A stretch of 42,846 bases of DNA from Candidatus Giovannonibacteria bacterium (lineage in GTDB: Bacteria; Patescibacteriota; Minisyncoccia; UBA11713; 2-01-FULL-45-33). Shown piece by piece: positions 3 through 42,409 of this stretch. The translations under genes were made by a program, and so were the position numbers. The DNA is taken from positions 1-42,846 of the forward strand of contig JAUYMO010000020.1 in the NCBI GenBank assembly GCA_030699445.1. Direction: 5' to 3'. The notes under the pieces are model-generated. The model worked only from the letters and a program-made list of their open reading frames with translations, was not told where the DNA came from and did not search any database. Position 1 is the stretch's first letter, and every line of letters begins with the position of its first letter.

Positions 3-728
3 GCGTCGAGTCCGGCGGAGTTCCACGCGATTTTGGGGCAGATTAATCTTTTTTCCAAAATCCGCCTGGTAATTTTTAAAAATATTTTGGAATCTAATCC
101 CAAAATTTTTGAAATTCTTGAAGAAAGCGGCGATTTTTTAAAAAATTCAAAAGACATTTTCGTTTTTTGGGAAAAAGATTTAACGAAGCATAAAGAAGTT
201 TTAGCGTTTTTTAAGAAATTCGCGGAAAAAATGCAGGAAGTAAAAATACTTGGCCCGAAAGAACTGGATTTGTGGCTAGCGAAAAAAGCGCAAATTTTGG
301 GTTTAAAAATCAGCAAAGAGGAGCGCGATGTGATGATATCCGAAGCCGGCGACGGCGCCGAATGGGCGCTGGAAAATGAGCTGGAGAAAAGGGTGCTAGG
401 CGCGCCAGCCTCTTTGAAGTCCGACTTCAAATCCCCAAAGAAGTCGGACTTCTTCCCGGCTAGCGCGGCTTCTCCCTTTCCTTTCATTGAAAAAATGTTT
501 GGCCCGCGCGCGTTAATTGCTTTAAAAGAAATGTCTTTCACCGGCATTGAGCCGCAACAATTTATTTATCCTTTGCTTTGGAAAATAAAACAAAAGCGCA
601 TGGCGGACGCTTATTTCAAAGGCATCCAAGTAGAATCAGCCATGCGAAGAGACCCAAAAAATTCGTACGAAATTCTGGAGCGATTTATTTTTTCCCTGCC
701 CGACCGGCAGGCGGGGCTAAAAGTTTAG
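3..728 (+). CDS. holA: DNA polymerase III delta subunit (5'-truncated by window); contains two palindromic in-frame inserts
   Basis: Frame is open from the window start; 'LENELEK' motif; convergent with rpsT, the usual holA-rpsT arrangement. Confidence 0.75.
   Translation, partial: ASSPAEFHAILGQINLFSKIRLVIFKNILESNPKIFEILEESGDFLKNSKDIFVFWEKDLTKHKEVLAFFKKFAEKMQEVKILGPKELDLWLAKKAQILGLKISKEERDVMISEAGDGAEWALENELEKRVLGAPASLKSDFKSPKKSDFFPASAASPFPFIEKMFGPRALIALKEMSFTGIEPQQFIYPLLWKIKQKRMADAYFKGIQVESAMRRDPKNSYEILERFIFSLPDRQAGLKV
409..459 (+). repeat. 51-bp double-palindrome element (arm GAAGTCCGACTTC), in frame in holA
   Basis: cctcttt-gaagtccgacttc-aaatccccaaa-gaagtcggacttc-ttcccgg; near-identical to 2207-2257. 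Confidence 0.9.
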
Positions 729-945
729 CCAGACGAGATTTCATCCGGGCGGCTTTGTTTTTTTTGATGAGGCCTCTTTTGGCGGATTTGTCTATGGCTT
801 TATAGGCGGCGGAAAGTGAAGCGGGCGACTTTTCAAGAGCCGCCTTTTTTACAGCCTCCTTTAATTTTTCTTTCCATGCCTGATTTCTCTCCCGCCTTTG
901 GCTGGATTGCCTTAAGGCCTTTTTAGCCGATGAAGTTATTGGCAT
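685..945 (-). CDS. rpsT: 30S ribosomal protein S20
   Basis: MPITSSAKKALRQS...AYKAIDKSAKRGLIKKNKAARMKSRL. Confidence 0.97.
   Translation of the reverse strand: MPITSSAKKALRQSSQRRERNQAWKEKLKEAVKKAALEKSPASLSAAYKAIDKSAKRGLIKKNKAARMKSRLAKLLAPPAGRAGKK
695..715 (+). repeat. 21-bp CCTGCC/GGCAGG palindromic element in the holA/rpsT overlap
   Basis: cctgcccgaccggcaggcggg. Confidence 0.85.
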
Positions 946-959
946 AAAAAGAGTTTATA

Positions 960-2939
960 TTAGTTTAAACTTTTAATCAAGTCTCTCAATTCGGCGGCTT
1001 TTTCAAAGTCCAGCGCTTTGGCGGCTTCCAGCATCTCTTCTTCCAATTCCTGTTTTAGTTTTTCTTTGGACATTTCTTTAGACATTTTAGTAAGGTCAAA
1101 TTTTATTTTCTTTTCTTCTTCACCAAAGATATTTTCTCCGATTTCCCGCCTGATTGGCTCGGGCGTAATGCCGTTCTTTTTGTTATATTCATCCTGGATT
1201 TTTCTTCTGCGTTCAGTTTCTTCAATCGCGTTTTTCATGGATTCCGTAATTTTATCCGCGTACATAAGGACGGTTCCGTCGGTGTGCCTGGCCGCCCGGC
1301 CGATTGTCTGGATTAAAGTTTGTTTATTTCTCAAAAATCCTTCTTTGTCCGCGTCTAAAATTATAACAAGCGAAACTTCCGGGAGATCGATGCCCTCCCT
1401 TAAAAGATTTATTCCGACGATCACATCAAACGAACCTTTTCTTAAATCTCTCAAAATTTTATGTCGCTCTAAAGTTTTTATGTCGGAATGCAGATATTCG
1501 GCTTTGATTTTCTCTTCTTTTAAAAAATCCGCCAAATCCTCGGCCATGCGTTTTGTAAGCGTCGTCACGATAACGCGCTCATTTTTCGCGACCCGCTTTT
1601 CTATCTCAAAAATTACGTCTTTGATTTGTCCTTCAGTTTTTCTTATCTCAAGTTTCGGATCCAAGAGGCCGGTCGGGCGGATAATTTGTTCCACGACGGC
1701 GTTATTGCTTAATTTTATTTCATATTCAGCCGGCGTCGCCGAAACATAAACCGTCTGGCCGACTTTTTTTAAAAATTCGTCAAATTTTAAAGGCCGGTTG
1801 TCCATAGCCGAGGGGAGTCTGAAGCCGTAATCCACCAAAACCTGTTTTCTAGCGCGGTCGCCCATATACATCCCGCGGATTTGAGGGATGGACATATGCG
1901 ATTCATCAATAATCGTAATAAAATCTTTGGGCAAGTAATCCAAAAGCGTGGCGGGCGGCTCACCTGCTTTTCTAAACGCGAGCTGCCTGGAATAATTTTC
2001 TATTCCGTGCGTATAGCCGGTCTCGCGGAGCATTTTTAAATCAAAATTAACGCGCTGGGAAATTCGTTGGGCTTCCAAAAGCTTTCCCTCTTTTTTTAAT
2101 TCGGCAACTCGGCTTTTTAATTCCAATTCAATATTGGTAAGTGCCAGCTCAAGTTTGTCCTGCGGGGTCACGAAATGTTTCGCCGGGAAAATTTTTGCCT
2201 CGCCAGCCTCCTCGAAGTCCGACTTCAAATCCCCAAAGAAGTCGGACTTCTTCCCGGCTGGCGCGGTTTCCGATATCTTTTCAATTCGGTTTCCGTTCCA
2301 TTCAATTTTAACCACCGAATCTCCGGATGGAGCCGCGATTTCCACCGCTTCTCCGCGCACTTTAAAAATCCCCGCCCTCAAGTCGTAATCATTCCTTTCG
2401 TACTGCATCTCAACCAGTTTTTTTAAAAAAGCGCGCTGGGAAACCGGCATGCCCTCTTTTATTTCAAGCGCCGCTTTTTCGTATTCAACCGGATCGCCGA
2501 TGCCGTAAATACAGGAAACCGACGCGACAATCACAAAATCTCGGCGGGTGAGCGCCGTAGCGGTTGTGGCGTGGCGCATAGCGTCAATAAAATCGTTTAT
2601 TTTGGCATCCTTTTCTATATATGTGTCGGTTTGCGGAATATAGGCTTCCGGCTGGTAATAATCGTAATAAGAAACAAAATAATGCACGGCATTTTCCGGG
2701 AAAAAAGTTTTAAATTCCTGATAAAGCTGGGCGGCCAAAGTTTTATTGTGGGAAATCACCAAAGCCGGGCGGCCCAAATTGGCGATGGCGTTGGCCATAG
2801 TAAAAGTTTTTCCGGAGCCGGTGACACCTAAAAGCGTCTGATTTTTATTTCCTGCTTTCAGCAAACCGGTTAGCTCGGCAATCGCTTTTGGCTGATCTCC
2901 CTCCGGCTTATATGGCTGATGAAGTTTAAATATTGACAT
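960..2939 (-). CDS. uvrB: Excinuclease ABC subunit B
   Basis: GVTGSGKT, YFVSYYDYYQPEAY, DESH, C-terminal UVR 'LDFEKAAELRD'. Confidence 0.99.
   Translation of the reverse strand: MSIFKLHQPYKPEGDQPKAIAELTGLLKAGNKNQTLLGVTGSGKTFTMANAIANLGRPALVISHNKTLAAQLYQEFKTFFPENAVHYFVSYYDYYQPEAYIPQTDTYIEKDAKINDFIDAMRHATTATALTRRDFVIVASVSCIYGIGDPVEYEKAALEIKEGMPVSQRAFLKKLVEMQYERNDYDLRAGIFKVRGEAVEIAAPSGDSVVKIEWNGNRIEKISETAPAGKKSDFFGDLKSDFEEAGEAKIFPAKHFVTPQDKLELALTNIELELKSRVAELKKEGKLLEAQRISQRVNFDLKMLRETGYTHGIENYSRQLAFRKAGEPPATLLDYLPKDFITIIDESHMSIPQIRGMYMGDRARKQVLVDYGFRLPSAMDNRPLKFDEFLKKVGQTVYVSATPAEYEIKLSNNAVVEQIIRPTGLLDPKLEIRKTEGQIKDVIFEIEKRVAKNERVIVTTLTKRMAEDLADFLKEEKIKAEYLHSDIKTLERHKILRDLRKGSFDVIVGINLLREGIDLPEVSLVIILDADKEGFLRNKQTLIQTIGRAARHTDGTVLMYADKITESMKNAIEETERRRKIQDEYNKKNGITPEPIRREIGENIFGEEEKKIKFDLTKMSKEMSKEKLKQELEEEMLEAAKALDFEKAAELRDLIKSLN
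2207..2257 (+). repeat. 51-bp double-palindrome element, in frame in uvrB
   Basis: cctcctc-gaagtccgacttc-aaatccccaaa-gaagtcggacttc-ttcccgg, flanked by cgccag/ctggcg. Confidence 0.9.
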
Positions 2940-2976
2940 AGTAAAATAAACGCGAACTTAGCTTATCAAAAATTAT

Positions 2977-3012
2977 TTGATTCCACAACTACTATGATAT
3001 ATCATAGTAGTT
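2977..3012 (+). promoter_or_regulatory. Promoter TTGATT-17-TATCAT overlapped by a 26-bp perfect palindrome (putative operator)
   Basis: aactactatgata|tatcatagtagtt at 2987-3012, directly upstream of the TrpR-like gene. Confidence 0.65.
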
Positions 3013-3015
3013 AAT

Positions 3016-3432
3016 ATGCCGCATGTTTCCAGAAAAAAATTAAAGAAGAAAGTTTTTATAAAAATCGGCGAGCAACTGGCCGATACTATCGCCAAAGCCA
3101 ACTCGGCGCGGGAGTTAAGGTGGATTTTTAAGGAACTAATCACGCCGACTGAACGCGTTATGCTGGCGAAAAGGCTGGCGATAATATTGATGCTTGAGCG
3201 CGGTTATTCTTTCAATATTATTCAAAAAACTCTTAAAGTAACGCCGCAGACCATATTAAGGTTTTGGAAAATTACCAAACAGAGCTCGCATAAAGCAGTT
3301 ATTAAAGAAATTTCTTCCAGCAAAGCCAAAAAAGATTTTTGGCAGGAATTGGAAAAACTTATTTTATTTGGCATGCCGCCTCGTGGCCGGCAATGGCAGC
3401 TCATGCGCCGAGTTGCCGCGAAACACTTATAA
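3016..3432 (+). CDS. TrpR-like (YerC/YecD-type) helix-turn-helix protein
   Basis: ELITPTERVMLAKRLAIILMLERGYSFNIIQKTLKVTPQTI resembles the Trp repressor LT..ER..L..R..I pattern. Confidence 0.8.
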   Translation: MPHVSRKKLKKKVFIKIGEQLADTIAKANSARELRWIFKELITPTERVMLAKRLAIILMLERGYSFNIIQKTLKVTPQTILRFWKITKQSSHKAVIKEISSSKAKKDFWQELEKLILFGMPPRGRQWQLMRRVAAKHL

Positions 3433-3450
3433 ACACTTATAAACACTTAT
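3421..3450 (+). repeat. Tandem repeat (aaacacttat)x3 spanning the TrpR-like stop codon
   Basis: Three exact 10-bp units. Confidence 0.95.
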
Positions 3451-3453
3451 AAC

Positions 3454-3483
3454 CAAACCACTATGATATATCATAGTGGTTTG
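3454..3483. repeat. 30-bp perfect palindrome, copy 2
   Basis: caaaccactatgata|tatcatagtggtttg. Confidence 0.95.
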
Positions 3484-3515
3484 AAGACTCTTAGATAAGA
3501 TGTTAATATAATCAT

Positions 3516-4301
3516 ATGGCGAAATGGCATTTTTGGGGAGAAAAAGAATTCTCGGATGTTTATGAGAATATTTATATCCGCGCTTTAAACGAGGATTGGT
3601 TTGAAATAGTGTCTATAATGGTTGACGAAATCAATTCTCTAAAAACTCAAGGAAAGAAGTCAATTTTAGATATAGGTTGCGGAGAAGGGCATACTACGAA
3701 ACAAATATTGGATAGGATAAAAGGAGCTTACGCGTGCGATTTATTGGAGCCCAACGAAAATGCTTTGGCCTCAGCCGAAGCTTTTTTGACCCCAGAAAAT
3801 AATATAGGCAAGCGATATCCTAAATCGCTCGCCACTTTTAAGCCAGAAAAGAAATACGACATAGTGTTTACATCCCATACTAATTATTACTGGGCGCTTA
3901 ATCAGAAAGATTATAATGAGCAGTTAAAAAAATTAATTACATTTCTAAAGCCGAATGGTAAATTACTAATTCTCACGTTGCCGTGGGAGAGCGATCATTA
4001 TCAAATAGCACTTAGGCAGATATATCCAGTTTTCAATTACGCGCAGTATATTATTGATTTCTACAAAAAATTCAGCGTTCAAATAAAGGTTAAAAAACTC
4101 AGGATGCGGCTTTTTATAGGAGATATTTTAAACACAAAGAAACTTTTCGATGTAAAGATCTTTTATCGCTTTATACACAACACAGATTCCTATCCGCGCG
4201 AATCAGAAAGTAGGGCTTTTCTTAAAAAAATACAGAAGTATCAAAAAAATAACTATCTTGATTTTAAGGATTACTTAATTGTTGTCAGTAGAAAGGAATA
4301 A
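3516..4301 (+). CDS. Class I SAM-dependent methyltransferase (AT-rich accessory gene)
   Basis: ILDIGCGEG motif I; KYDIVF; LKPNGKLLI. Confidence 0.9.
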   Translation: MAKWHFWGEKEFSDVYENIYIRALNEDWFEIVSIMVDEINSLKTQGKKSILDIGCGEGHTTKQILDRIKGAYACDLLEPNENALASAEAFLTPENNIGKRYPKSLATFKPEKKYDIVFTSHTNYYWALNQKDYNEQLKKLITFLKPNGKLLILTLPWESDHYQIALRQIYPVFNYAQYIIDFYKKFSVQIKVKKLRMRLFIGDILNTKKLFDVKIFYRFIHNTDSYPRESESRAFLKKIQKYQKNNYLDFKDYLIVVSRKE

Positions 4302-4326
4302 TCAAATGATCAATTTTTACTAACTT

Positions 4327-4356
4327 CAAACCACTATGATATATCATAGTGGTTTG
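4327..4356. repeat. 30-bp perfect palindrome, copy 3
   Basis: Identical to 3454-3483. Confidence 0.95.
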
Positions 4357-4417
4357 GATTTGTAATAGAAATATGCGAAATACGCATTTTGCGCGCAATT
4401 TATGTTATAATTAATAA

Positions 4418-4987
4418 ATGATAGGGCACTTGGAAGGCAAGGTCATATTTAAAGGCGAGCGGCATGTTGTTTTAGATGTGGGCGGAGTCGGATATAAAAT
4501 TTTTGTCTCTGCCTCTTCTAAAAATTTATCCATTGGAGAGAACGCCAAGCTTTGGACGCGCCTGCATGTAAAAGAAGAAGCGCTGGAGCTTTACGGATTT
4601 TCGCATCAGGCGGAATTGGAATTTTTTGAAATGCTGATTTCCATCTCGGGCATCGGCCCAAGGTCGGCCTTGGGCGCGCTTGCTTTAGCGCCAGTTGATT
4701 CTTTAAAGCGCGCGATATCATCCGGCGATACCTCTTATCTCACAAAAATTTCCGGCATCGGCAGAAAAACCGCCGAAAAAATAGTTTTGGAACTGAAAGA
4801 CAAAATGGGCTTCGGAAAAGTTTCATTCGGCGGGGAAGAATTCAAGGAAGACACGGATATTTTGGACGCCCTGATTGCTTTGGGCTATTCCCAAAGAGAG
4901 TCGCGCGAAATGCTCCAAAAAATTCCGTCAAATATCCGCGGCCGCGAAAAAAGATTAAAAGAGGCCTTAAAAACGCGGGAAAAATAA
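4418..4987 (+). CDS. ruvA: Holliday junction branch migration protein RuvA
   Basis: MIGHLEGKV, GVGYKI, ISGIGPRSAL, GIGRKTAEKIVLELKDK. Confidence 0.98.
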   Translation: MIGHLEGKVIFKGERHVVLDVGGVGYKIFVSASSKNLSIGENAKLWTRLHVKEEALELYGFSHQAELEFFEMLISISGIGPRSALGALALAPVDSLKRAISSGDTSYLTKISGIGRKTAEKIVLELKDKMGFGKVSFGGEEFKEDTDILDALIALGYSQRESREMLQKIPSNIRGREKRLKEALKTREK

Positions 4988-4988
4988 T

Positions 4989-6263
4989 ATGCTTGATGAA
5001 ACATTGGCTTCAGTAAAAAAATTTATTCCGAAGCCGATTTTTAATTTTTTCCAGCCATACTATCATTGGTGTTTGGCGTATCTGGCGGCGGCGATTTACG
5101 GATTTCCTTCGCGCAAGTTAAAAATCGTGGGAGTTACAGGCACCAACGGGAAATCAACCGTGGTGCATTTGTTAACTTCCATTTTGGAAGAGGCGGGCGA
5201 GAAAGCCGCGTCGATTTCTTCTCTGCGTTTCCGGATAAATAAAAAAGAAGAAACAAATACTTTAAAAATGACCATGCCGGGCAGGTTTAAGCTCCAAAAA
5301 TTTTTGCGGGAGGCGGTCAAAGCCGGATGCAAATACGGAATTATAGAAATAACATCAGAAGGAATCAAACAGCACCGGCACATAGGCATTGATTTTTACA
5401 TGGCGGTGCTTACCAATGTGACGCCGGAGCATATTGAATCGCACGGGACTTTTGAAAAATACCGCGCGGCAAAAGCGGAGCTTTTTAAAAAAGCGAAAAT
5501 ACATGTTTTAAACGGAGAGGACCCTTCTATTGATTATTTTTTAAAAATTCCTGCCTCGCCGGCAGGCAGGCCCGCCCAGAACCGCATTATTTATTCCAAA
5601 AAAGATTTTCCTCCGAATATACATCTTAAACTTTTGGGCGATTTTAATCTGGAAAATTCAGTCGCGGCGTATCACGCCGCGAAACTTCTGGGAATAGAGT
5701 TTGGCGCAATAAAAAGCGCGTTGGAAAAAACAGAAGGCGTGCCGGGGCGGCTGGAATTTATCCAAAAAGAACCATTTTCCGTGGTGGTGGATTACGCGCA
5801 CACTCCGGACGCGCTGGAGAAAATCTATGAGACTTTGCGTCCACCCGGGAAAACACTCGGTGTTTTTGGGGATTCAACACCGAGTGTTGAGGAGGGTAGA
5901 CGATTGATTTGTGTTTTAGGATCTGCGGGAGGCGGGCGCGACAAATGGAAACGGCCGGAGATGGGGAAAATCGCCGCGAAATTCTGCGATGAAATTATTT
6001 TAACCAATGAAGACCCGTATGACGAGAATCCGGAAGCAATTTTGGCGGAAGTAGAGCGCGGCATCGCGCAAAAAAACAAACTCCGGAAAATTTTGGATAG
6101 AAAAGAAGCGATAGGCGCGGCTTTGAAATCAGCGGAGCCGGGCGACACCGTAATCATCACCGGCAAAGGCGCTGAACCATGGCTCATGGGCCCCAACGGC
6201 TCCAAAATTCCTTGGGATGACAGGGAAGTGGCGAGAGAAGAGCTGGCCAGCGCGCAAAAATAA
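4989..6263 (+). CDS. murE: Mur ligase, MurE-like
   Basis: GVTGTNGKST, PGRLE, VDYAHTPD, GGGRD..KR..MG, NEDP, GKG. Confidence 0.9.
   Translation: MLDETLASVKKFIPKPIFNFFQPYYHWCLAYLAAAIYGFPSRKLKIVGVTGTNGKSTVVHLLTSILEEAGEKAASISSLRFRINKKEETNTLKMTMPGRFKLQKFLREAVKAGCKYGIIEITSEGIKQHRHIGIDFYMAVLTNVTPEHIESHGTFEKYRAAKAELFKKAKIHVLNGEDPSIDYFLKIPASPAGRPAQNRIIYSKKDFPPNIHLKLLGDFNLENSVAAYHAAKLLGIEFGAIKSALEKTEGVPGRLEFIQKEPFSVVVDYAHTPDALEKIYETLRPPGKTLGVFGDSTPSVEEGRRLICVLGSAGGGRDKWKRPEMGKIAAKFCDEIILTNEDPYDENPEAILAEVERGIAQKNKLRKILDRKEAIGAALKSAEPGDTVIITGKGAEPWLMGPNGSKIPWDDREVAREELASAQK
5550..5570 (+). repeat. 21-bp palindromic element, in frame in murE
   Basis: cctgcctcgccggcaggcagg (PASPAGR); exact reverse complement of 34017-34037. 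Confidence 0.9.
5845..5895 (-). repeat. 51-bp double-palindrome element (arm AACACTCGGTGTT), in frame in murE
   Basis: Reverse complement reads cctcctc-aacactcggtgtt-gaatccccaaa-aacaccgagtgtt-ttcccgg. Confidence 0.9.
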
Positions 6264-6293
6264 AAAAAGCCCAGCGATTGAGGCGCCGAGCTT
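6262..6293 (-). terminator. Probable intrinsic terminator for the minus-strand ORFan
   Basis: Minus strand reads aaagctcggcg..cgctgggcttttttt. Confidence 0.55.
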
Positions 6294-6307
6294 TACTGGA
6301 ATTTATT

Positions 6308-6643
6308 TCATAATGGAGGAGGAGGTGATAGCGAAAGCGGTGTTTTTTCATGAATCTCTATCTCATTTAGTTGCCCATCACAGACCCCAATAACAAACAC
6401 GCCGCTTTTCTGATTTAAATCCTTTAACTCCTTCACTTTTATGTCAAAATATTTCTCTTTTCCGTCCTGCTCTCGGAGTGCCTCTTTTACTTTTGGGTCC
6501 TCCGGTGGCAATATTGGCGTGAGCTTTTCTATAACTTGGCTTTCAGAATTAGCCTTTACAATAAATAGATGTGCACGGCTCCATGCTGTCCAGCCATGCA
6601 TACCGAGGCACGGAATAAAAACTTGTGCAAGAAATAAGCTCAT
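6308..6643 (-). CDS. Hypothetical protein (ORFan cassette)
   Basis: Upstream TTGACT/TATTAT promoter and AGGGGG SD; downstream terminator. Confidence 0.7.
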   Translation of the reverse strand: MSLFLAQVFIPCLGMHGWTAWSRAHLFIVKANSESQVIEKLTPILPPEDPKVKEALREQDGKEKYFDIKVKELKDLNQKSGVFVIGVCDGQLNEIEIHEKTPLSLSPPPPL

Positions 6644-6820
6644 AAAACACCCCCTTTCTTCTGTGCCTATAATACTCCCGCAATTTAAGAAGTCAAGTGC
6701 CGCGTAGTATTTTTTGAATTTGCAATTTACACGCCATAGCGGGTTAATTGCAAATTTGATTTATTAGAGTTGCAAAAAATATAGAACGATGCTAGAAAAA
6801 ATAAAGAAGGAGAATTCTTT

Positions 6821-7525: not shown

Positions 7526-7576
7526 CCATCCGGCGGGTTTTTTTATTTTTAATCTGTCTTGTGATACCATAAATAT

Positions 7577-8347: not shown

Positions 8348-8350
8348 GGG

Positions 8351-8848
8351 ATGAAAATTTTTCTTATTTTGCACAATGTCCGAAGTTTGCATAATGTCGG
8401 CTCAATTTTCCGGACGGCCGAAGGACTGGGCGTTAAAAAAATATATTTAACTGGATATACGCCGGAGCCATATGATATTTTCGGAAAACTTCGGAAAGAT
8501 TTTCAAAAAACCGCGCTCGGCGCGGAAAAATATTTGGAGTGGAAGCAAGTTAAAAATATTTTCGCTTTAATTAAGCGTCTCAAACAAGACGGCGTTAAAA
8601 TAGTCGCGCTGGAGCAATCAAAATCTTCTATTAATATTAAAAAATTCAAACCGCGCGCAAAATTTGCGTTGATTTTGGGAAACGAAGTCACTGGCATTCC
8701 GAAATCCGTTCTTAAAAAATGCGATAAAATTATAGAAATCCCCATGCGCGGCAAAAAAGAGTCGCTGAATGTTTCAGTAGCGGCAGGAATTGCGCTTTAT
8801 GCTTTGCGCAACTTAGACGTCGGACGTCTAAGTGAGACGTCTAAATGA
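8351..8848 (+). CDS. TrmH/SpoU family RNA methyltransferase
   Basis: HNVGSIFRTA, LGNEVTG, IPMRGKKESLNVSVA. Confidence 0.95.
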   Translation: MKIFLILHNVRSLHNVGSIFRTAEGLGVKKIYLTGYTPEPYDIFGKLRKDFQKTALGAEKYLEWKQVKNIFALIKRLKQDGVKIVALEQSKSSINIKKFKPRAKFALILGNEVTGIPKSVLKKCDKIIEIPMRGKKESLNVSVAAGIALYALRNLDVGRLSETSK

Positions 8849-8868: not shown

Positions 8869-8940
8869 GTTGAAATAGGTACTAATTTTTGGAAATAAAA
8901 AGGAACGATATCATTATCGTCCCGATTTCGTTAAGAATTT

Positions 8941-21073: not shown

Positions 21074-21156
21074 TTTATAGTTATCTCCGGCGCCCTGCCT
21101 GCCGGCAGGCAGGCATCCCCGGCAACCGCGGAAGCTTGGTGGAAATCAGAGGATAA
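21074..21156 (+). pseudogene. Relic second rplC 3' end, frameshifted by a 20-bp palindrome
   Basis: FIVISGA[cctgcctgccggcaggcagg]IPGNRGSLVEIRG* versus the active LLAILGAVPGHRGSLVEVRG*. Confidence 0.85.
21094..21113. repeat. 20-bp perfect palindrome of the CCTGCC/GGCAGG family
   Basis: cctgcctgcc|ggcaggcagg. Confidence 0.95.
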
Positions 21157-29372: not shown

Positions 29373-29493
29373 CCCCGTTAGAAATCGCGGACACATAAAC
29401 AAAAATATGATATATAATAAAAAGTCGCAATTTATAAGCAATAATCTAGCACGCAACGCATTTTTTGCGTCTGCGTACTATTTCTAACGGGGT
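29372..29493. mobile_element. 122-bp MITE-like element with 14-bp perfect TIRs
   Basis: accccgttagaaat (29372-29385) ... atttctaacggggt (29480-29493). Confidence 0.8.
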
Positions 29494-30037
29494 GAGCCGA
29501 CTAGCAAAAAAACCAATAACTCCGCCGGCGGGGGTGACAATAAAAAAAGAAGGAAGCTTCTGGATTTTTAAGGGGCCAAAAGGGGAGCTTAAAAAATCTT
29601 TTTCTGATTACGTTAATATTGAAGAGCGTGACGGCGCTTTTCTGATTTCTCTGAAAAACGATTCAATCAAAGACGCTTACGCCATGCTTGGCACGACCGC
29701 AGCGCTTTTTAAAAATTGCGTTGAAGGCGCGCAAAACGGATTTGAAAAGAAATTGGAAATTGAAGGAGTGGGCTACCGCGCGCAAATTGACGGCAATGAC
29801 CTGGTTTTATCCATAGGATTTTCGCATCCCGTAAAAATTCCGGCTCCGGAAGGCATAACTTTTAAAGTTGAAAAAAATGTTATTACCATAAATGGCGTAG
29901 ATAAAGAGCAAACCGGTCAGGTAGCCGCTAAAATCCGCGCGGAGAAAAAACCGGAGCCCTACAAAGGCAAAGGCATACATTATCAAGGCGAGGTTATAAG
30001 GAGAAAGGCCGGCAAGAAAGCAGTTTCAACAGCATAA
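29492..30037 (+). CDS. rplF: 50S ribosomal protein L6 (GTG start)
   Basis: (M)SRLAKKP, KGPKGEL, GVGYRA, PEPYKGKGI. Confidence 0.97.
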   Translation: MSRLAKKPITPPAGVTIKKEGSFWIFKGPKGELKKSFSDYVNIEERDGAFLISLKNDSIKDAYAMLGTTAALFKNCVEGAQNGFEKKLEIEGVGYRAQIDGNDLVLSIGFSHPVKIPAPEGITFKVEKNVITINGVDKEQTGQVAAKIRAEKKPEPYKGKGIHYQGEVIRRKAGKKAVSTA

Positions 30038-33044: not shown

Positions 33045-33052
33045 AAATAGTT

Positions 33053-34425: not shown

Positions 34426-34445
34426 ATTTAGAATAATATAAACTT

Positions 34446-34866: not shown

Positions 34867-34885
34867 AATGTGCTAAAATAAATCT

Positions 34886-35623: not shown

Positions 35624-35627
35624 TTTT

Positions 35628-36575
35628 ATGAAGCCAACAATAGAATTTCGCAAAGATATTGTTTCCGGGGACTGGGTTTTGATTTCCACGGACATTCAAA
35701 AAAAACCCGTGTTTTTTAAACGCATTAAAACAAAACCGTTTCCCAAATCAAGATGTCCATTTGAAACAATTCAACAATCCAAAGACCGATGGGTTCATGT
35801 TTTCCCTAATAAATATCCGGTTGTCGCGCGCTCCAATATCTGCCCGCCATTGGAAAAATGCGGCATACACGAAAAAAAAATCGGCGTCGGGTTTCAGGAG
35901 GTAGTCGTGACCAGGTCCCACGAAAGGCATTTCGCGCTTATGACTCGGGATGAAATATGTTTGGTTTTGGAGGCCTACCAATCAAGATACCAGGCGCTGG
36001 CTAGCGAGCCATGCGTGGATTACATTTTAATAATTCACAATCACGGCTCGCGCGCCGGAGCCACCGTGCCCCATCCGCATTCCCAAGTTTTCGCGATTCC
36101 AATAATCCCACCGGACGTGAAAAGAAGCTTGGAGGGTTCGCATAATTATTTTCGCGCGCACAGGCGCTGCGTCCATTGTGATATTTTAAAGGATGAGCTT
36201 AAGGAAAAAGAGCGCACTATTTATCAAAACAAGCGTTTTGTGGTTTTGGCGCCTTATGCTTCGCGGGTCTCGTATGAAGTCAGGATATTCCCGAAATTCC
36301 ACGAGTCGCGTTTTGAAGTTATAGACCAGGCGCAAAGAAAAGATTTATCGGACGCGATGAGCTTTGTTTTCCAGAGAATTTTTAAAAAAAATAAAAATCC
36401 CGATTATAATTTTTTTATCCACACCGCTCCGCCGAAAGAGCGCCACGCCGAGCATTACCATTGGCACATGGAGATTTTGCCGAGGGCCGCAATTTGGGGC
36501 GGGTTGGAATTGGGCGCGGGGATTGACGTCGTCAAAATTTCTCCCGAAGAAACAGCTAAACTTTTAAGAAGATGA
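35628..36575 (+). CDS. galT: Galactose-1-phosphate uridylyltransferase family (HIT-like)
   Basis: CPFE, PNKYP, NHG..AGAT..HPHSQ, YHWH.EI.PR. Confidence 0.9.
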   Translation: MKPTIEFRKDIVSGDWVLISTDIQKKPVFFKRIKTKPFPKSRCPFETIQQSKDRWVHVFPNKYPVVARSNICPPLEKCGIHEKKIGVGFQEVVVTRSHERHFALMTRDEICLVLEAYQSRYQALASEPCVDYILIIHNHGSRAGATVPHPHSQVFAIPIIPPDVKRSLEGSHNYFRAHRRCVHCDILKDELKEKERTIYQNKRFVVLAPYASRVSYEVRIFPKFHESRFEVIDQAQRKDLSDAMSFVFQRIFKKNKNPDYNFFIHTAPPKERHAEHYHWHMEILPRAAIWGGLELGAGIDVVKISPEETAKLLRR

Positions 36576-37309
36576 AAAAAATAATTATTGCCAACTGGAA
36601 AATGAATCCGAAAACTCCGCGGGACGCTTCGCGTCTAGCCGACAAGATTGGGCGCGGAGTTAAAAATATCAAGAGTGTTGAGGTTGTTTTTGCCCCGCCA
36701 TTCATTCATATTCCCGCAATTTATAAATTTAAAACAGGAGCACAGGATTGTTTTTATGAAAAATCAGGAGCATACACGGGCGAGGTATCCCCTTTACAGC
36801 TTAAAGCTTGCGGCGTACGGCTTGTTATCGTTGGCCATTCGGAAAGAAGGGCGTTGGGAGAAACAAATGAAATCGTAAATAAAAAATTGAAAGCGGTTTT
36901 AGGAACGGGTATGCGGGCAATACTTTGCGTTGGGGAAGCGGAAAGGCAAAAGGAAATAGCGTTCCCAAAAATTATACGGGATGAACTTCATGAAGGGCTC
37001 TCGCGCATTAAAAAATCATTCTTCAGGAATTTGATTATTGCTTATGAGCCGATTTGGGCAATTGGAACGGGGCGGGCTGACACGCCAAAAAATGTTTATG
37101 AAATTACGACAATAATACGCAGGGAACTTTACCGCATGGTTGGAAAAAGAATCGCTTCCAAAATCCCGGTGCTCTACGGCGGTTCGGTGGATGACAAAAA
37201 TTCCTACGCTTTCGTAAAAGACGGCGCGGTTGACGGCTTGTTGGTCGGCGGAGCGAGCCTCAACGCGAATAAATTTGTAAAATTGGTTAAAGCGGTTGCC
37301 GGCTTATGA
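36572..37309 (+). CDS. tpiA: Triosephosphate isomerase
   Basis: ANWKMN, GHSERR, AYEPIWAIGTG, YGGSV, LVGGASL. Confidence 0.99.
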   Translation: MKKIIIANWKMNPKTPRDASRLADKIGRGVKNIKSVEVVFAPPFIHIPAIYKFKTGAQDCFYEKSGAYTGEVSPLQLKACGVRLVIVGHSERRALGETNEIVNKKLKAVLGTGMRAILCVGEAERQKEIAFPKIIRDELHEGLSRIKKSFFRNLIIAYEPIWAIGTGRADTPKNVYEITTIIRRELYRMVGKRIASKIPVLYGGSVDDKNSYAFVKDGAVDGLLVGGASLNANKFVKLVKAVAGL

Positions 37310-38340
37310 AACGAGTTCTTTTACGCGCCGATTTCAATGTTCCTCTCAAAAAAGGCAGAGTGGCCGACGATTTTAAAATACAAAAAACGATTCCAACCAT
37401 AAAAAAACTTTTGGCGGGAAATAATCAAATTTTTATTATTACCCACTTGGAAATTGACGGCAAAACGCCCAATTTAAATCCGGTAAAAATTGCGCTGGAG
37501 AAATTGCTTGGATTTAAAATAGGTTTCGCGCGAGGCAAGTTGCCGTTAAAACCAAAAAAGTTTTCCGAGCGCGTAGTGCTTTTGGATAATATCCGCTTAA
37601 ATCTAGGAGAGAAAAAAAACGATTTAGCTTTTGCCAAGCGTTTGGCTTTTTGGGGCGACTCTTATATCAATGACGCTTTTGCCGAATCCCACCGCAAGTA
37701 CGCTTCAATTGTTTTACTGCCCAAGTTTTTGCCTTATGAAGCCGGGCCGCTTTTAAAAAAAGAAATTAAACATCTTTCCAGATTTTTCAAGCCAAAGCAT
37801 CCATTTTTGGCGGTTATCGCCGGAAAAAAATTCGCGACCAAAGAACCGCTAATTTCAAGATTTTTAAAATCCGCCGACGCGGTGTTTGTCGGGGGCGCCA
37901 TCGGCAATACTTTTTTGGCCAGGCGCGGAATCGGTGTGGAAAAATCAAAAGTTGAGAACATAAAAATTCCAAAAAGCGTTGTTTGGAGCAATAAAATTTT
38001 ATTGCCGGGGGATTGGACGATGAAGCAAGGTTTGATTTTAGACGCGGGGCCGAAAACAGTAAAAACTTTGGGCGAGCTTGCCCAGGCGTCCAAATTTGTT
38101 TTATGGAACGGAACTCTAGGCATTTGTGAAAAAGGATTTATTTATGGGACAAAAACTTTTGCCAAAGAGCTTGGAAAATCCAAGGCGTATAAAGTTGTTG
38201 GCGGAGGAGATACGGTTGCCGCCATCCGGAAATTCAAACTGGAAAAAAACTTTGATTTTATTTCAACCGGCGGCGGCGCCATGCTGGAATTTCTGGCGAA
38301 AGGAACTCTTCCGGGGATTGAGGCATTGAAGAAAAAATAA
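37306..38340 (+). CDS. pgk: Phosphoglycerate kinase (compact)
   Basis: RADFNVP, NDAF..SHR, GGGDT, STGGGAMLEFL. Confidence 0.97.
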   Translation: MKRVLLRADFNVPLKKGRVADDFKIQKTIPTIKKLLAGNNQIFIITHLEIDGKTPNLNPVKIALEKLLGFKIGFARGKLPLKPKKFSERVVLLDNIRLNLGEKKNDLAFAKRLAFWGDSYINDAFAESHRKYASIVLLPKFLPYEAGPLLKKEIKHLSRFFKPKHPFLAVIAGKKFATKEPLISRFLKSADAVFVGGAIGNTFLARRGIGVEKSKVENIKIPKSVVWSNKILLPGDWTMKQGLILDAGPKTVKTLGELAQASKFVLWNGTLGICEKGFIYGTKTFAKELGKSKAYKVVGGGDTVAAIRKFKLEKNFDFISTGGGAMLEFLAKGTLPGIEALKKK

Positions 38341-38362
38341 AGTGCTATACTGACTTAATCTT

Positions 38363-39157
38363 ATGCGCTACGATAATGCGGAACATTTTAAAAAAGAAAA
38401 CGGCTACGAGGTGGACGGGGCGTGGTATCCGAGGGTTACCAGAATTTTGGAAGTGAAAGCCAAACCGGGGCTACAAGTTTTTTTTAAAGAAATGGGAAGC
38501 TTTGACGCCGCCGAAGACGTAAAAAATAAATCGGCAGAGGAGGGTTCCGCGGTTCACGAAGCGATTCAGAAGTTGCTTACCGGAAAAAAAGTTTCCGTGT
38601 CTCGCGATATTGAACCCGCCGTGAATAAATTTTTGGAATTTAACCAATTAAGGCAGATTTATTTTCACCCCGAGTATGTGGAGCGCCGGATTTGGTCGGG
38701 GCTCCATAAATACGCGGGAACGGTTGACGCGCTCGCCACCATAGACGGGAAATTCGGCGTTTTGGACATTAAAACCTCAACCGGATTTTTTCCGGAATAT
38801 AATCTCCAGACCGCGGCTTATATCCAGGCGCTTCAAGAATTGGAAATTAAAAAATCGCTGGCATTGCCGAAAGAAATCCAAACAAGATGGATTTTGCGGA
38901 TTAACCAGCACAAGGTTTGCAAAAAATGCAATTCAACGCTCCGCGAAAAAGGAGGGAGGAGCAAAGTCAGGAATGGTAGATCAAACGGCATGCCGCATTG
39001 TATAGAAGCAGAGCATGATTGGGGCGAGGCGGAGGGCGACGTGGAGCTCAAAGAATTTCCGTATTATTTCAGGGACGTCCGCGCGTTTTTAGCCGCCAAA
39101 ATTCTCTGGGAATGGGACAATGATTACTGGCTCCGCCAAATCGGATATTCAAGATGA
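38363..39157 (+). CDS. PD-(D/E)XK nuclease family protein
   Basis: PRVTRIL, GSAVH, YAGTVD, LDIKTS, Q..AY. Confidence 0.85.
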   Translation: MRYDNAEHFKKENGYEVDGAWYPRVTRILEVKAKPGLQVFFKEMGSFDAAEDVKNKSAEEGSAVHEAIQKLLTGKKVSVSRDIEPAVNKFLEFNQLRQIYFHPEYVERRIWSGLHKYAGTVDALATIDGKFGVLDIKTSTGFFPEYNLQTAAYIQALQELEIKKSLALPKEIQTRWILRINQHKVCKKCNSTLREKGGRSKVRNGRSNGMPHCIEAEHDWGEAEGDVELKEFPYYFRDVRAFLAAKILWEWDNDYWLRQIGYSR

Positions 39158-39999
39158 ACAAAAATAAAAACATCGTGGTTTTGTATCATAAAGGGTGCGA
39201 GGACGGCTTTGGCGCGGCCTGGGCGGCGTGGAAAAAATTTGGCGCGCGCGCGGAGTATATTGGAGTAAATCATGGCGATAAATTGCCCGCGGACTTAGCG
39301 CGAAAAGATATTTATATGGTTGATTTTACGTATCCCGCTAAGGAAATGCGGCGGCTTCTTAAGATTTGCAAAAAAGTTGTAGCTCTAGACCATCATGTTA
39401 GCTCAATGGCTGCTACAATGTTGGCGCATGATTATCGTTATAATATTAATCATTCCGGAGCCGGACTCGCTTGGAAATATTTTCATCCTAAAAAACCAAT
39501 TCCAAAGCTACTCAAATATATTGAGAATGTGGATATTTGGAAAATGTCTTTGCCCTATGTTTACGAAATCGCTGCATCGCTGGGCACTTATGAATTTGAA
39601 TTTTATTTATGGAATAAAATTGCCAAAGATTTTGAAAATACTAGAAGTTTAAATAAATATATTGAAGAGGGCAAGGCAATTTTGAAGTACAAAAATGTTC
39701 TTATAAAAAAAGCTTTAAAAGACGCGGAAGAAGTGAGATTTTTTGGCAAGCGCGCGCTCGCGGTTAATTTTGCGCTGGCTCTCAATTCCGATATTGGCGA
39801 CGCAATGCGCAAAAGGGGGTTTCAACTCGGAATTATTTGGCAAAAAAAGGGAGATAAATTGGTAGTAAGTTTACGTTCCACAAATAAAGTTGATTCGTCA
39901 AAAATTGCTATGAAGTTTGGCGGAGGCGGGCACAAAAAAGCGGCTGCATTTAGATTGCCAATTAACCAAAAATTCCCATGGAAAAAAATAAAAAAATAG
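39154..39999 (+). CDS. DHH/DHHA1 phosphoesterase
   Basis: YH..C.DG, VDF, LDHH, SLRS, GGGGHKKAA. Confidence 0.93.
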   Translation: MNKNKNIVVLYHKGCEDGFGAAWAAWKKFGARAEYIGVNHGDKLPADLARKDIYMVDFTYPAKEMRRLLKICKKVVALDHHVSSMAATMLAHDYRYNINHSGAGLAWKYFHPKKPIPKLLKYIENVDIWKMSLPYVYEIAASLGTYEFEFYLWNKIAKDFENTRSLNKYIEEGKAILKYKNVLIKKALKDAEEVRFFGKRALAVNFALALNSDIGDAMRKRGFQLGIIWQKKGDKLVVSLRSTNKVDSSKIAMKFGGGGHKKAAAFRLPINQKFPWKKIKK

Positions 40000-40565
40000 T
40001 TTTTATAATCCACGGTTGGTGGGGCTACCAGAAAGAAGGATGGTTTCCTTGGCTTAAAAAAGAGCTTGAAAAAAGAGGGTTTAGGGTTTTTGTTCCAAAA
40101 ATGCCGGAAACCGGCAAGCCAAAAATAAGCAGATGGGTTGGAAAACTCGCCAAAATTGTTAGGATGCAGTATAAAAATACTTATTTTGTCGGGCATAGCA
40201 TCGGCGCGCAGGCGATTATGAGATATTTGGAGAAATTGCCGAAAAGTAAAAAAATCGGTGGGGCTGTTTTCGTGGCCGGTTGGGTGAGTTTAACAAATCA
40301 AACTCCCGAAGAAAAACCGATTGCGAAACCTTGGTTGCGAACGCCATTAAATTTTAAAAAAATAAAAAATTCCGGCAATAAATTTGTCGCCATATTTTCA
40401 GATGGCGATCCTTATGTGCATTTTTCTAAAAATTCAAAAGTATTCAGACAAAAACTCGGCGCAAAAATTATTGTTCAGCATAAAAAAGGCCATTTTTCCG
40501 GAAGCGACGGCGTTAAAAAATTACCGGTAGTTTTGAATGAGTTGTTAAAAATAGTGAAGAAATAA
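39978..40565 (+). CDS. RBBP9/YdeN-family alpha/beta hydrolase
   Basis: IIHGW, WFPWL, GHSIG, SDGDPYV, GHF. Confidence 0.93.
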   Translation: MEKNKKIVFIIHGWWGYQKEGWFPWLKKELEKRGFRVFVPKMPETGKPKISRWVGKLAKIVRMQYKNTYFVGHSIGAQAIMRYLEKLPKSKKIGGAVFVAGWVSLTNQTPEEKPIAKPWLRTPLNFKKIKNSGNKFVAIFSDGDPYVHFSKNSKVFRQKLGAKIIVQHKKGHFSGSDGVKKLPVVLNELLKIVKK

Positions 40566-40568
40566 ATT

Positions 40569-41021
40569 ATGCCAAAAAAAGAAGCCGAAAAACTTATTGT
40601 CTATACTGACGGAGGGTCAAGGGGGAATCCGGGGCCGGCGGCGCTGGGAGTGGTGATTTTGGACGAAAAAGGGCGTGTGGTTAAAGAATACGGAGAAAAA
40701 CTTGGCGTAAAAACCAACAACGAGGCCGAATACGCCGCGGTGATATTCGCTTTAAAAAAAATCAAAGCGCTATTGGGAAAAGAAAAAACAAAAAAGATGG
40801 AAATTGCTTTTCGGATGGACAGCGAATTTGTGATGAAGCAGTTAAACGGAGAATATAAAATTGAAGAAGAAAGAATGTTTCCGCTTTTTGTTGCCGTGTG
40901 GAATTTAAAATTTGATTTTGGCAAAATAACTTTCAGCCATGTGCCCCGCGAAAAAAATCGCGAAGCCGACCGCTTGGTTAACGAAGCGCTGGATAAGGAA
41001 CAGGGCAGATTATGGCAGTAA
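40569..41021 (+). CDS. rnhA: Ribonuclease HI
   Basis: YTDGGSRGNPGPA, TNNEAEY, DSE, HVPREKNREADRL. Confidence 0.96.
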   Translation: MPKKEAEKLIVYTDGGSRGNPGPAALGVVILDEKGRVVKEYGEKLGVKTNNEAEYAAVIFALKKIKALLGKEKTKKMEIAFRMDSEFVMKQLNGEYKIEEERMFPLFVAVWNLKFDFGKITFSHVPREKNREADRLVNEALDKEQGRLWQ

Positions 41022-42409
41022 AGCACGTTCCGTATTTGCTGGTCGCGTTTTTATGCGGAGTTATGCTCCGCTCATTTTTTAATATTCCGCAAAATTGGAT
41101 TTTGGGAGTGTTGGGATTAACGGTGGGGATCGTAATTATTTTATATTTTTTTGCCGCGCCCTCCTCAACACTCGGTGTTGAATCTCAAAAAACACCGAGT
41201 GTTTTCCCGTGCGCGGCTTTGTTTATTATTTTATTTTTCCTCCTTGGCATATTCCGCTTTTCTATTTTTGAAAATAAAATTACGGCTGACCGGCTTCACG
41301 ATTATTACGGCCAAACACTTACTTTACAAGGTAAAGTATTATCGAGCGTTCTTAAACCGAATAGTTCCCGCATCATTTTAGAAACCAATCTGGGCAGGAT
41401 TTTAATAGTGAAAAGAATTTATCCGGAATATAAATACGGAGATGTTTTGGAAATTTCCGGAAAAGTAGCCGAGCCGGAGCCTTACGCCGGCTTTGACACG
41501 GCTAAATTTCTTGCAAAACAGCAGATTTATTCCCAGATGATTTTTCCGGAAATTAAAAAAATCGGCTACTCTCCCAATAAATTTTTAAATTCGCTATTTT
41601 TTATAAAAAATAAATTTGAAGAAAGCTTAAAAAATATTTTACCGGAACCGGAGGCCTCACTGGCTTCGGGAATGCTTTTGGGGATTGAGGGCGTAATCCC
41701 GCAAAATATTTTGGATAATTTCAGGAAAGCAGGCGTTATCCATATTTTGGTGCTTTCTGGCTACAATATCACGGTCGTGGGAGCGTTTATTATGGCTTTT
41801 TTGGGATTTATTTTGCCGGATTTTCTGGCTTGGGCCGGCTCGCTTTTGGGGATTTTAGCTTTTACTTTGATGACCGGAGGCGAGCCAGCCGCGGTACGCG
41901 CGGCGATTATGGCCGTAATCGGACTCGTGGCCCTGCGCACGGGCAGAAGCTACCTCGCGATACTCGGCCTTTTGTGGGCGGCCTTTTTCATGGCTTTTTG
42001 GAATCCGATGTATGTCCGGTTTGACAGGGGTTTCCGGCTTTCTTTTTTGGCGACTTTGGGGCTGATACTTTTTTCTTCCTGGTTTATTAAAAAACTTTGG
42101 TTTCTGCCGAAATTTTTGGGCATCCGCGAAGCGGCCGCATCCACGCTTTCAGCCCAAATTTTCGTGACGCCGCTTCTGCTTTCCTGGGGGAATCTGGTTT
42201 CTTATCTAAGCCCCTTAGCCAATGTTGTGATAGTCGGTTTTGTGCCGACAATTATGTTTTTTAGTTTTGTAGCCGGAATTTTGGGATTTTTTTCCAGTTT
42301 TTTGGGGACAACGCTGGCTTTGGTCCCTTATTTTTTGATAAAATTTCAGATTTTGGCCGCCCAATTTTTCGCTAGCATTGATTGGGCCATGATTTATTTT
42401 AATTTTTGA
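41012..42409 (+). CDS. comEC: ComEC/Rec2 competence protein (membrane part)
   Basis: G..HILVLSGYN, AVRAAIM, GF.LSFLATLG, ANV. Confidence 0.95.
   Translation: MAVKHVPYLLVAFLCGVMLRSFFNIPQNWILGVLGLTVGIVIILYFFAAPSSTLGVESQKTPSVFPCAALFIILFFLLGIFRFSIFENKITADRLHDYYGQTLTLQGKVLSSVLKPNSSRIILETNLGRILIVKRIYPEYKYGDVLEISGKVAEPEPYAGFDTAKFLAKQQIYSQMIFPEIKKIGYSPNKFLNSLFFIKNKFEESLKNILPEPEASLASGMLLGIEGVIPQNILDNFRKAGVIHILVLSGYNITVVGAFIMAFLGFILPDFLAWAGSLLGILAFTLMTGGEPAAVRAAIMAVIGLVALRTGRSYLAILGLLWAAFFMAFWNPMYVRFDRGFRLSFLATLGLILFSSWFIKKLWFLPKFLGIREAAASTLSAQIFVTPLLLSWGNLVSYLSPLANVVIVGFVPTIMFFSFVAGILGFFSSFLGTTLALVPYFLIKFQILAAQFFASIDWAMIYFNF
41160..41210 (+). repeat. 51-bp double-palindrome element (arm AACACTCGGTGTT), in frame in comEC
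   Basis: cctcctc-aacactcggtgtt-gaatctcaaaa-aacaccgagtgtt-ttcccgt, flanked by gccgcgc/gcgcggc. Confidence 0.9.

Follow-up and report, generated by a model that had tools for sequence, protein, structure and literature searches.

A two-storey hairpin element in core genes of Candidatus Giovannonibacteria, probably mobile, translated, and associated with RAYT-like transposases

We analyzed a 42,846-nucleotide stretch of DNA (contig JAUYMO010000020.1, hereafter the window) from a Candidatus Giovannonibacteria bacterium, in which a short palindromic element lies in frame within several core genes. The window is contig C52 of its assembly (GCA_030699445.1, hereafter G000), which comprises 657,832 bp in 58 contigs with 43.8% G+C and is 95% complete. 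A first-pass annotation had reported four copies of the element, in holA, uvrB, murE, and comEC. The pattern that it proposed gave exactly 4 matches in the window, at positions 409, 2207, 5846 (minus strand), and 41160, whereas 100 dinucleotide shuffles of the window gave 0 and 0 were expected by chance. The four copies were thus confirmed, together with their layout, their self-palindromic arms, their stop-free reading, and their occurrence in both orientations relative to the host gene. Pfam supported UvrB, Mur ligase, and ComEC as hosts, the second copy lying within the UvrB interaction domain, but holA obtained only a weak match (NCBIfam TIGR01128, 43 bits for a cut-off of 80). The features of the window are as follows.

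402..466, plus strand: element copy 1, GAAGTC class; core 410-458, outer stem 402-409 / 459-466; host, a weakly HolA-like open reading frame (ORF) at 3..728, same orientation; peptide SLKSDFKSPKKSDFFP.
2200..2264, plus strand: element copy 2, GAAGTC class; core 2208-2256, outer stem 2200-2207 / 2257-2264; host, uvrB at 960..2939 on the minus strand, opposite orientation; peptide GKKSDFFGDLKSDFEE.
5838..5902, minus strand: element copy 3, AACAC class; core 5846-5894, outer stem 5838-5845 / 5895-5902; host, the Mur ligase gene at 4989..6263 on the plus strand, opposite orientation; peptide GKTLGVFGDSTPSVEE.
41153..41217, plus strand: element copy 4, AACAC class; core 41161-41209, outer stem 41153-41160 / 41210-41217; host, comEC at 41012..42409, same orientation; peptide SSTLGVESQKTPSVFP.
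8811..8833: solo perfect palindrome ACTTAGACGTCGGACGTCTAAGT, resembling a repetitive extragenic palindrome (REP), at the 3' end of an ORF at 8351..8848.

The element had been described as a 51-bp unit. Across 17 copies of the genome, the first and last bases of this 51-mer were C-G in 8, G-C in 5, T-A in 2, A-T in 1, and another combination in 1. Since these end bases covary, the conserved core is 49 nucleotides (nt) long, and the end bases are part of the flanking inverted repeat. The core consists of CTCCTC, a 13-nt palindrome, a loop of ~11 nt, a second palindrome, and TTCCCG. Both arms are 6-1-6 palindromes, arm 2 being arm 1 with its centre base complemented, and the spacer between them measures 9 to 13 nt. 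With respect to the scaffold, the linker can lie either way round, and GGCGGGCTTCA is a linker of a second type. A GC-rich, variable outer stem of about 8 to 11 bp encloses the core. In a covariation analysis, 99.5% of the inner 13-bp helix was paired, and both partners had changed at 10 of its 13 pairs; for the outer helix, pairing was 74.9%, and 11 of 11 pairs had changed in both partners, mostly Watson-Crick. The observed covariation score was reached by 0 of 500 shuffles, and pairing dropped to ~40% when the partners of the outer helix were slid by 1 to 3 columns. Inverted 13-nt hairpins within an enclosing outer stem imply that a single strand folds as a two-storey hairpin, and folds of either strand as single-stranded DNA (ssDNA) indeed adopted this shape, at -19 to -26 kcal/mol and z scores of -5.7 to -7.5. 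The arms, their inverted pairing, the short spacer, and the ability to fold as one hairpin correspond to the layout of a REPIN (a REP doublet forming a hairpin). A search of positions 1-6500 of the window against Rfam 15 gave five weak matches, none over an element.

The arms had been thought to have two unrelated sequences. Among the 17 copies, we counted AACACT in 9, GAAGTC in 4, AAAACC in 2, AACATC in 1, and GAAACC in 1. Over 64 distinct copies from G000 and its relatives, the classes were AACACT, AACACC, AACATC, AAAACC, GAAACC, GAAGTC, and AAAGTC, of which AACACC and AAAGTC were found in relatives. Adjacent classes differ at 1 to 2 positions per half-arm. Thus, there are at least six classes connected by small steps, and the two classes of the window are the ends of one series.

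The 17 copies were obtained by a structural scan of the genome for a self-palindromic 13-mer, 11 bases, and the reverse complement of the 13-mer. A covariance model built from them added three variants, for a total of ~20 copies in 0.66 Mb: a GAAGTC copy on contig C34 with a different hairpin nested in its linker, a single-arm short form at C58:377, and a scaffold-less arm pair of a further class on C17. Further copies were also present in relatives. Of the 20 genomes of the order, which consists of one family, 17 have the element, with 1 to ~40 matches per genome (about 8 copies in G003). It was found in 0 of 12 genomes from 12 other families of the class in a first sample. When 151 genomes were sampled evenly across the class, 12 carried 1 to 3 copies each: G000, all 5 others sampled from its family, 3 of the 5 from family f18, 2 from f46, and 1 from f73.

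We also inspected Logan contigs that hold parts of the window in four groundwater metagenome runs from two studies. Contigs of three runs bridged the holA-like copy with 0 differences, whereas contigs of the likely source run, assembled from short reads, broke inside the uvrB and murE copies. Loose contig ends piled up exactly at the borders of the 49-nt core, which shows that this core has many other flanks in those metagenomes. None of the joints listed in the four runs skipped exactly one element. In one contig of run X3, murE positions 5823-5906 were replaced by 36 other letters, which correspond to the short loop of a relative.

Comparison of orthologous genes established that the element is an insertion, since the sites in uvrB, murE, and an IscS-like gene were found empty in congeners. 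All length differences relative to empty sites were multiples of three (57, 63, 66, 69, 72, or 84 nt), so the insertion is not exactly 17 codons as previously proposed. The net difference ranged from 48 to 84 nt depending on the comparator; the nearest genomes share ~75-85% DNA identity, and empty loops vary in length. In uvrB, the stretch from EWxGN to KIFPAKH is empty and 63 nt long in G002 (same genus), G014, and G015. The site is filled by a GAAGTC element in the opposite orientation in G000 and G001 (+66 nt), by a GAAGTC element in the same orientation in G010 (+84 nt, plus a GAGGAG-GCTGGCGCG remnant, the end of a copy in the opposite orientation), and by AACAC elements in G016 (+72 nt, opposite orientation) and G018 (+69 nt, same orientation). 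The murE loop is short in G002, G007, G008, G012, and five genomes of other families. It holds an AACAC element in the opposite orientation in G000 (+57 nt relative to G002) and in G151, which belongs to a different family, a GAAGTC element in the same orientation in G010, and an AACATC element in the same orientation in G004. At the IscS-like site, G000 is empty, G002 has an AACAC element (+57 nt), and G001 has a GAAGTC element (+63 nt). A PrgI-family gene contains an AACAC element in G000 and, in G001 and G002, GAAGTC elements with a different outer stem but the same orientation. G001 was assembled independently; it shares the uvrB and holA-like copies and lacks the element at the comEC site. 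Together, these results show that the same protein loops were taken repeatedly, by different arm classes and in both orientations, and that the element is a repeat family whose presence differs between congeners, as expected of the non-autonomous family that had been suggested.

The murE spot is occupied in G001, G003, and G006 by other small repeats or a REP-like hairpin. The in-frame repeats are 3x CACGCTT in G001 and 3x ACGGCGT in G003. Likewise, contig C28 of G000 has 3x CGCAGA followed by 3x TCTGCG at ~29,450-29,540, in a gene read as LepA-like from its sequence alone, and the orthologous site of G001 has an AACAC element.

Elements also changed in place. The linker of the LeuRS copy is inverted between G000 and G002, the C58 site has the full element in one and the single-arm form in the other of G000 and G001, one arm of the C20 copy is swapped for an unrelated palindrome, and at ~23,680 of C42 the arms are retained without the scaffold. 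Templated rewriting of arms, as the first-pass annotation had envisaged, was not shown by these cases, but arms, loops, and whole cores do change at orthologous sites. A large LTD-domain protein (C58:2-2947 in G000, C14:1000-1250 in G001) contains several different hairpin inserts within 250 bp, namely, a REP with sequence ACTTAGACGTC that another hairpin interrupts, an element of the short form, and one complete element. The two congeners have different sets.

Nearly all copies are probably read as protein. All but one of the 64 copies (63) fall within open frames of 100 amino acids (aa) or more, and 61 of these share two reading frames: in 43, it is frame 1 in the host orientation (S-S-TLGV-ESPK-TPSV-FP and class equivalents), and in 18, frame 1 opposite to the host (GKTLGVFGDSTPSVEE and its equivalents). 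The remaining 2 are in another frame, though the other frames are stop-free in 20 to 51 of the 64 copies. This bias relative to the stop-free frames is significant (binomial P = 1.6e-13 and 3.3e-5). The hosts in G000 include UvrA, UvrB, UvrC, LeuRS, a second class-I aminoacyl-tRNA synthetase, and IF-2. The others are the Mur ligase, ComEC, an Fe/Mn superoxide dismutase (SOD), the PrgI-family protein, a PMT_2 glycosyltransferase, a Wzy_C/TPR protein, the LTD-domain protein, a double-receiver protein, the weakly HolA-like protein, and two proteins without a family. Retained inserts would give SSTLGVESPKTPSVFP or GKKSDFFGDLKSDFEE inside UvrB, MurE, or SOD. In an AlphaFold model of the Mur ligase (14 aligned orthologues), the insert falls between a helix and a strand, and its residues, 287-302, form the only internal stretch with a predicted local distance difference test (pLDDT) score below 50, for a mean of 86.2. 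The MurE insert is thus modelled as a low-confidence, disordered loop. More generally, the inserts would be translated as disordered loops of about 19 to 28 residues. Frame usage, the Pfam hosts, and the MurE model support the earlier proposal that the element adds peptide loops to housekeeping proteins.

All three genes of the uvr excision-repair set carry one element in G000: uvrC (C31:3136-4440), uvrA (C31:4475-7324), and uvrB (window 960-2939). Contig C39 has a 1196-codon frame (2559-6146) in which an intein splicing domain encloses an NYN nuclease domain. Near its 5' end is an AACATC element with an inverted linker in an otherwise unused frame, possibly upstream of the true start.

Two patterns were seen in the outer stem. 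Six identical AACAC cores have six different outer stems. In MurE, one half of the stem covers the native G-(G/R)-R codons ahead of LICVLG and the other half is their reverse complement, a pattern found in three lineages (G000, G010, and G151) and repeated in the SOD and IscS-like genes. We therefore read the variable stems as probably copied from host sequence in inverted orientation, during insertion or later. The GAAGTC copies share a stem, (C)CGCGCCAGC ... GCTGGCGCGG, in at least six unrelated genes from four genera; in this subfamily, the stem is probably part of the moving unit. The first-pass annotation had placed the element at the centre of palindromic target sites. The flanking palindrome is real and covaries, but its preexistence as a target gained no support, since no bare palindrome was found at the empty sites of uvrB, murE, the IscS-like gene, or the SOD gene. 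The palindromic sites seem to arrive with the element or to form at insertion. A bare palindrome, TCCGCCAG|CTGGCGGA, equivalent to a coreless outer stem of the GAAGTC class, occurs in unrelated genes at C8:17532-17547 of G000 and C9:17881-17900 of G001. In G001, the palindrome extends a loop by NPPAGG, in a gene that its sequence suggests to be the PolI 5'-exonuclease, and it is absent from the orthologue in G000. Such a palindrome could be an excision footprint or a landing pad; no filled counterpart was shown at these two sites.

Candidate enzymes are encoded in the same genomes. Seven ORFs of 214 to 230 aa in G000 matched Pfam Y1_Tnp and have the HUH and Tyr motifs, and 25 of 31 relatives had at least one match. 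The motifs read NH(F/Y)H and (A/S)Y(I/V)xxN, with HUH and Y invariant in the alignment. The seven paralogs are at most 57% identical to each other. For the one paralog scanned, Pfam Y1_Tnp was passed (43.4 versus 23) and the best NCBIfam match was the REP-associated tyrosine transposase (RAYT; NF047646), with 38 bits for a cut-off of 80. Many Y1 genes have one perfect palindrome within 0 to 30 nt on both sides, often with a third, in-frame copy inside the gene. This internal palindrome is always in the variable stretch ahead of the HUH motif. The following genes of G000 have the threefold palindrome.

C45:2953-3612: Y1 gene with threefold palindrome.
C9:4291-4950: Y1 gene with threefold palindrome.
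C43:7138-7830: Y1 gene with threefold palindrome.
C53:3220-3864: Y1 gene with threefold palindrome.

Relatives also have such genes (loci L086-L104 and L162-L241). In three relatives, the palindrome that occurs upstream, within, and downstream of the gene is an arm hairpin of the element: CCAACAC-TCG-GTGTTGG for the Y1 gene on C35 of G016 (L092; protein at C35:25721-26422), TTGAAGTC-C/G-GACTTC for that on C19 of G010 (L102; protein at C19:6315-6980), and TATCGAAGTC-G/C-GACTTCGATA for that at C7:25060-25755 of G001 (protein at C7:25081-25752). Of the nine elements inspected in G001, seven are of the GAAGTC type, one of these being the AAAGTC variant. The GAAGTC-type Y1 gene has one orthologue per genome in 8 genomes. 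These genes support the idea of several cognate transposase specificities. A link to GIY-YIG genes, also raised earlier, was not seen, as the sole GIY-YIG hit was the host protein UvrC. The hairpin family of the solo palindrome ACTTAGACGTCGGACGTCTAAGT flanks other RAYT-like Y1 genes in G016 and G010 and also occurs in G001.

A scan of 185,579 species' genomes yielded 564 relatives of the Y1 proteins. The best 80 of these were nearly all in records titled Patescibacteria, Parcubacteria, Paceibacterota, and the like, and the closest named relatives were Patescibacteria. Among the same 80, 32 had one palindrome on both flanks (for example, AACACTCGGTGTT, AACATCCGATGTT, and GAAGTCGGACTTC) and 16 also had it inside the gene. 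AACAC, AACATC, and GAAGTC hairpins were likewise found around and within Y1 genes of patescibacterial records. We then compared RAYT presence with element number. AACAC doublets averaged 5.8 in the 6 genomes with a RAYT at least 57% identical to that of G016 and 1.1 in the 14 without (one-sided Mann-Whitney P = 0.019, for related and hence nonindependent genomes), and the AACAC-type RAYT orthogroup is present in each of the four genomes with the most AACAC doublets. GAAGTC doublets averaged 3.5 versus 1.1, with a pattern that missed the 5-nt-linker copies of G007.

The system resembles REPs, REPINs, RAYTs, and BIMEs (bacterial interspersed mosaic elements) in several respects. These systems of Proteobacteria are the subject of PMC3116915, PMC3337134, and PMC2817692. 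Paired REPs form larger hairpins, and BIMEs are mosaics of REPs. A conserved tetranucleotide, GTAG or CGTC, lies at the foot of the REP hairpin (PMC3733652). As in these systems, we found inverted hairpin pairs with a short spacer, conserved linkers between hairpin variants, and single-copy Y1 HUH genes with their own hairpin class, several classes each having their own paralog. In G016, G010, and G001, the Y1 gene is flanked by a hairpin that is dispersed in the genome, which is how REPs and their RAYT gene are associated. The differences are equally clear. The copies are intragenic and in frame rather than extragenic, their hairpins, at 13 nt, are much smaller, different hairpin classes share one scaffold, and a variable outer stem is added. 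Moreover, the hairpin is also found inside the Y1 coding sequence, the scanned Y1 protein falls short of the curated RAYT score, and the hosts are Patescibacteria-like genomes of ~0.7 Mb. We found no literature linking RAYTs, REPINs, or REPs with Patescibacteria or the candidate phyla radiation (CPR) within a partial coverage of the literature; the words "Parcubacteria" and "Patescibacteria" are absent from PMC6006769.

Other known systems fit less well. By description, the element is like the Rickettsia palindromic elements (RPEs) in being a palindromic repeat inserted in frame in coding genes. RPEs, which are about 100 to 150 bp long and known only from Rickettsia, lie in frame in protein genes, including essential ones, and are tolerated as extra peptide; to our knowledge, they have no known transposase. 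The present element differs by its 49 nt plus stem, its exchangeable arms, and its candidate enzyme family. In IS200/IS605 elements, a Y1 HUH gene is bounded by subterminal hairpins and moves by an ssDNA mechanism, and miniature derivatives (palindrome-associated transposable elements, PATEs) keep both hairpin ends. Here, in contrast, the Y1 genes are single-copy and diverged, and the scaffold is absent from their flanks. For this last reason, we rejected the view that the element is a simple internal deletion derivative of a gene-bearing RAYT unit.

Together, our results indicate that the element is probably a mobile, RAYT-associated hairpin element that is translated within its hosts. It is best read as an intragenic, REPIN/BIME-like, miniature nonautonomous element of small-genome bacteria. 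Each arm class would be cut and joined as ssDNA by its own Y1 paralog, and the surviving copies would be those that landed in tolerant surface loops in one of two benign frames. The outer stem may be partly carried along, as in the GAAGTC subfamily, and partly an inverted copy of neighbouring host codons, which would arise most simply by fold-back template switching at a strong hairpin during replication. A model that unites both would have the whole extruded hairpin moved, after which template switching extends the palindrome into host sequence. Template switching at such a stable hairpin might also explain the inverted linkers and the agreement of all four half-arms.

Several observations weigh against this interpretation. 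Identical cores could stem from gene conversion instead of recent transposition. The CGCCAGC/GCTGGCG stem, present at six or more genes, fits a carried-along stem better than a host-derived one in its subfamily, and the 66-nt uvrB insertion implies that both stem halves are new there. As for the enzymes, the scaffold sequences CTCCTC and TTCCCG were not found adjoining RAYT genes, and the scanned Y1 protein is below the NCBIfam cut-off. GAAGTC RAYTs are weakly linked to copy number (Fisher P = 0.36, Mann-Whitney P = 0.064), and GAAGTC elements are present in G000 and G002, for which no RAYT of that orthogroup was detected at E <= 1e-40 in assemblies that are each ~95% complete. In G000, we found no Y1 gene bearing the exact AACAC or GAAGTC hairpin, and the AACAC-type RAYT (C17:747-1418, 61% identical to that of G016) has a degenerate flank hairpin. 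Finally, Y1 paralogs occur in families without a detected element (G024, for example, has 8 Y1 hits).

A bolder version of the proposal, possible if unlikely, is that mobility is defined by structure. Any extruded hairpin would be moved, RAYT-like paralogs would be modular with recognition hairpins swapped as cassettes in a common scaffold, new elements would land at the tips of existing hairpins and give the nested layout, and the target would be duplicated in inverted rather than direct orientation. If so, both this transposition footprint and cassette swapping would be undescribed for HUH transposases, and the system would be a standing source of new surface loops in essential proteins of genomes almost without intergenic space.

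Much of the evidence could be accommodated without a transposase if a hairpin repeat had spread and been homogenised by replication slippage, by fold-back template switching, and by gene conversion between copies; the arms would then resemble Y1 flanks through a shared hairpin pool. The genome is indeed palindrome-rich: we counted 458 palindromes of many families with a stem of at least 7 bp, compared with 141 to 156 in shuffles. Arms, linkers, and whole cores do change in place, outer stems resemble inverted host codons as expected from template switching, and the persistence of GAAGTC elements in G000 and G002 and the scaffold missing from RAYT flanks point the same way. Quasipalindrome template switching (the Ripley model) preserves complementarity, inverts the segment between repeats, and grows palindromes into their flanks. 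As a mutational process, however, it leaves identical cores in unrelated genes unexplained. Because identical 49-nt cores are found with unrelated flanks, including many in metagenomes, a copy-and-insert step is needed and slippage alone is insufficient, whereas gene conversion requires a copy already at the site. In addition, three relatives and several distant Patescibacteria have the exact arm sequences on the flanks of Y1 genes and within them, and the top four AACAC-doublet genomes all have the matching orthogroup. We thus judge spread without a transposase to be unlikely.

It is quite improbable that the element is a host module with its own function, be it a regulatory DNA or RNA hairpin (acting in pausing or mRNA stability, or bound by a dimeric protein) or a peptide tag placed on many proteins. 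It is true that scaffold and linker show conservation between genera and that the stems covary, a pattern known from functional RNAs; that the use of reading frames is strongly nonrandom; and that 17 of the order's 20 genomes have kept the element. Yet the two orientations give two unrelated peptides and two different RNAs, copies are present or absent in the same essential genes of congeners, no Rfam family matched the element, and the MurE insert is modelled as disordered. Stem covariation is nearly all Watson-Crick with few G-U pairs, which argues for DNA symmetry rather than RNA. An intervening sequence removed after transcription or translation, like an intron or intein, is very improbable: the two-storey hairpin could in principle be a processing site, but such openness as 61 of 63 long-frame copies show in two stop-free frames would be needless, length differences are all multiples of three, removal of the 49-nt core alone would shift the frame, and no Rfam intron family matched. 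Chimeric assembly at a repeat, to which the contig breaks inside uvrB and murE could point, is hardly conceivable given the bridged holA-like copy, the orthologous copies in independent assemblies (uvrB and holA-like in G001; murE in G010, G004, and G151), and frames that stay open through all copies.

If the element is mobile and RAYT associated, the finding bears on systems that have so far been treated as extragenic and proteobacterial and whose mode of movement is unsettled. The same logic would operate here in ultra-small, gene-dense genomes, where there is room only inside genes and elements are coding-compatible both ways. With 13-nt hairpins, paralog-hairpin pairs, and one scaffold, the system is small and modular, and Y1 specificity is directly testable with oligonucleotides. 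For those who annotate Patescibacteria, the variable "lineage-specific inserts" of core proteins could in many cases be mobile hairpins, at which contigs break.

Two other palindrome families were observed. A zero-loop palindrome, CCTGCCTGCCGGCAGGCAGG, has ~8 copies in the genome, at 21094-21113 of the window and on contigs C4, C25, C28, C34, C45, and C53, and a related hairpin is the one nested in the linker of the GAAGTC element at C34:2894-2985. A 26- to 30-bp perfect palindrome (CAAACCACTATGATATATCATAGTGGTTTG and a variant) occupies three intergenic gaps of the window, at 2987-3012, 3454-3483, and 4327-4356. Shorter versions are found on at least five other contigs of G000, and the palindrome is also present in G001; it may serve as an operator or a bidirectional terminator, or form another repeat family.

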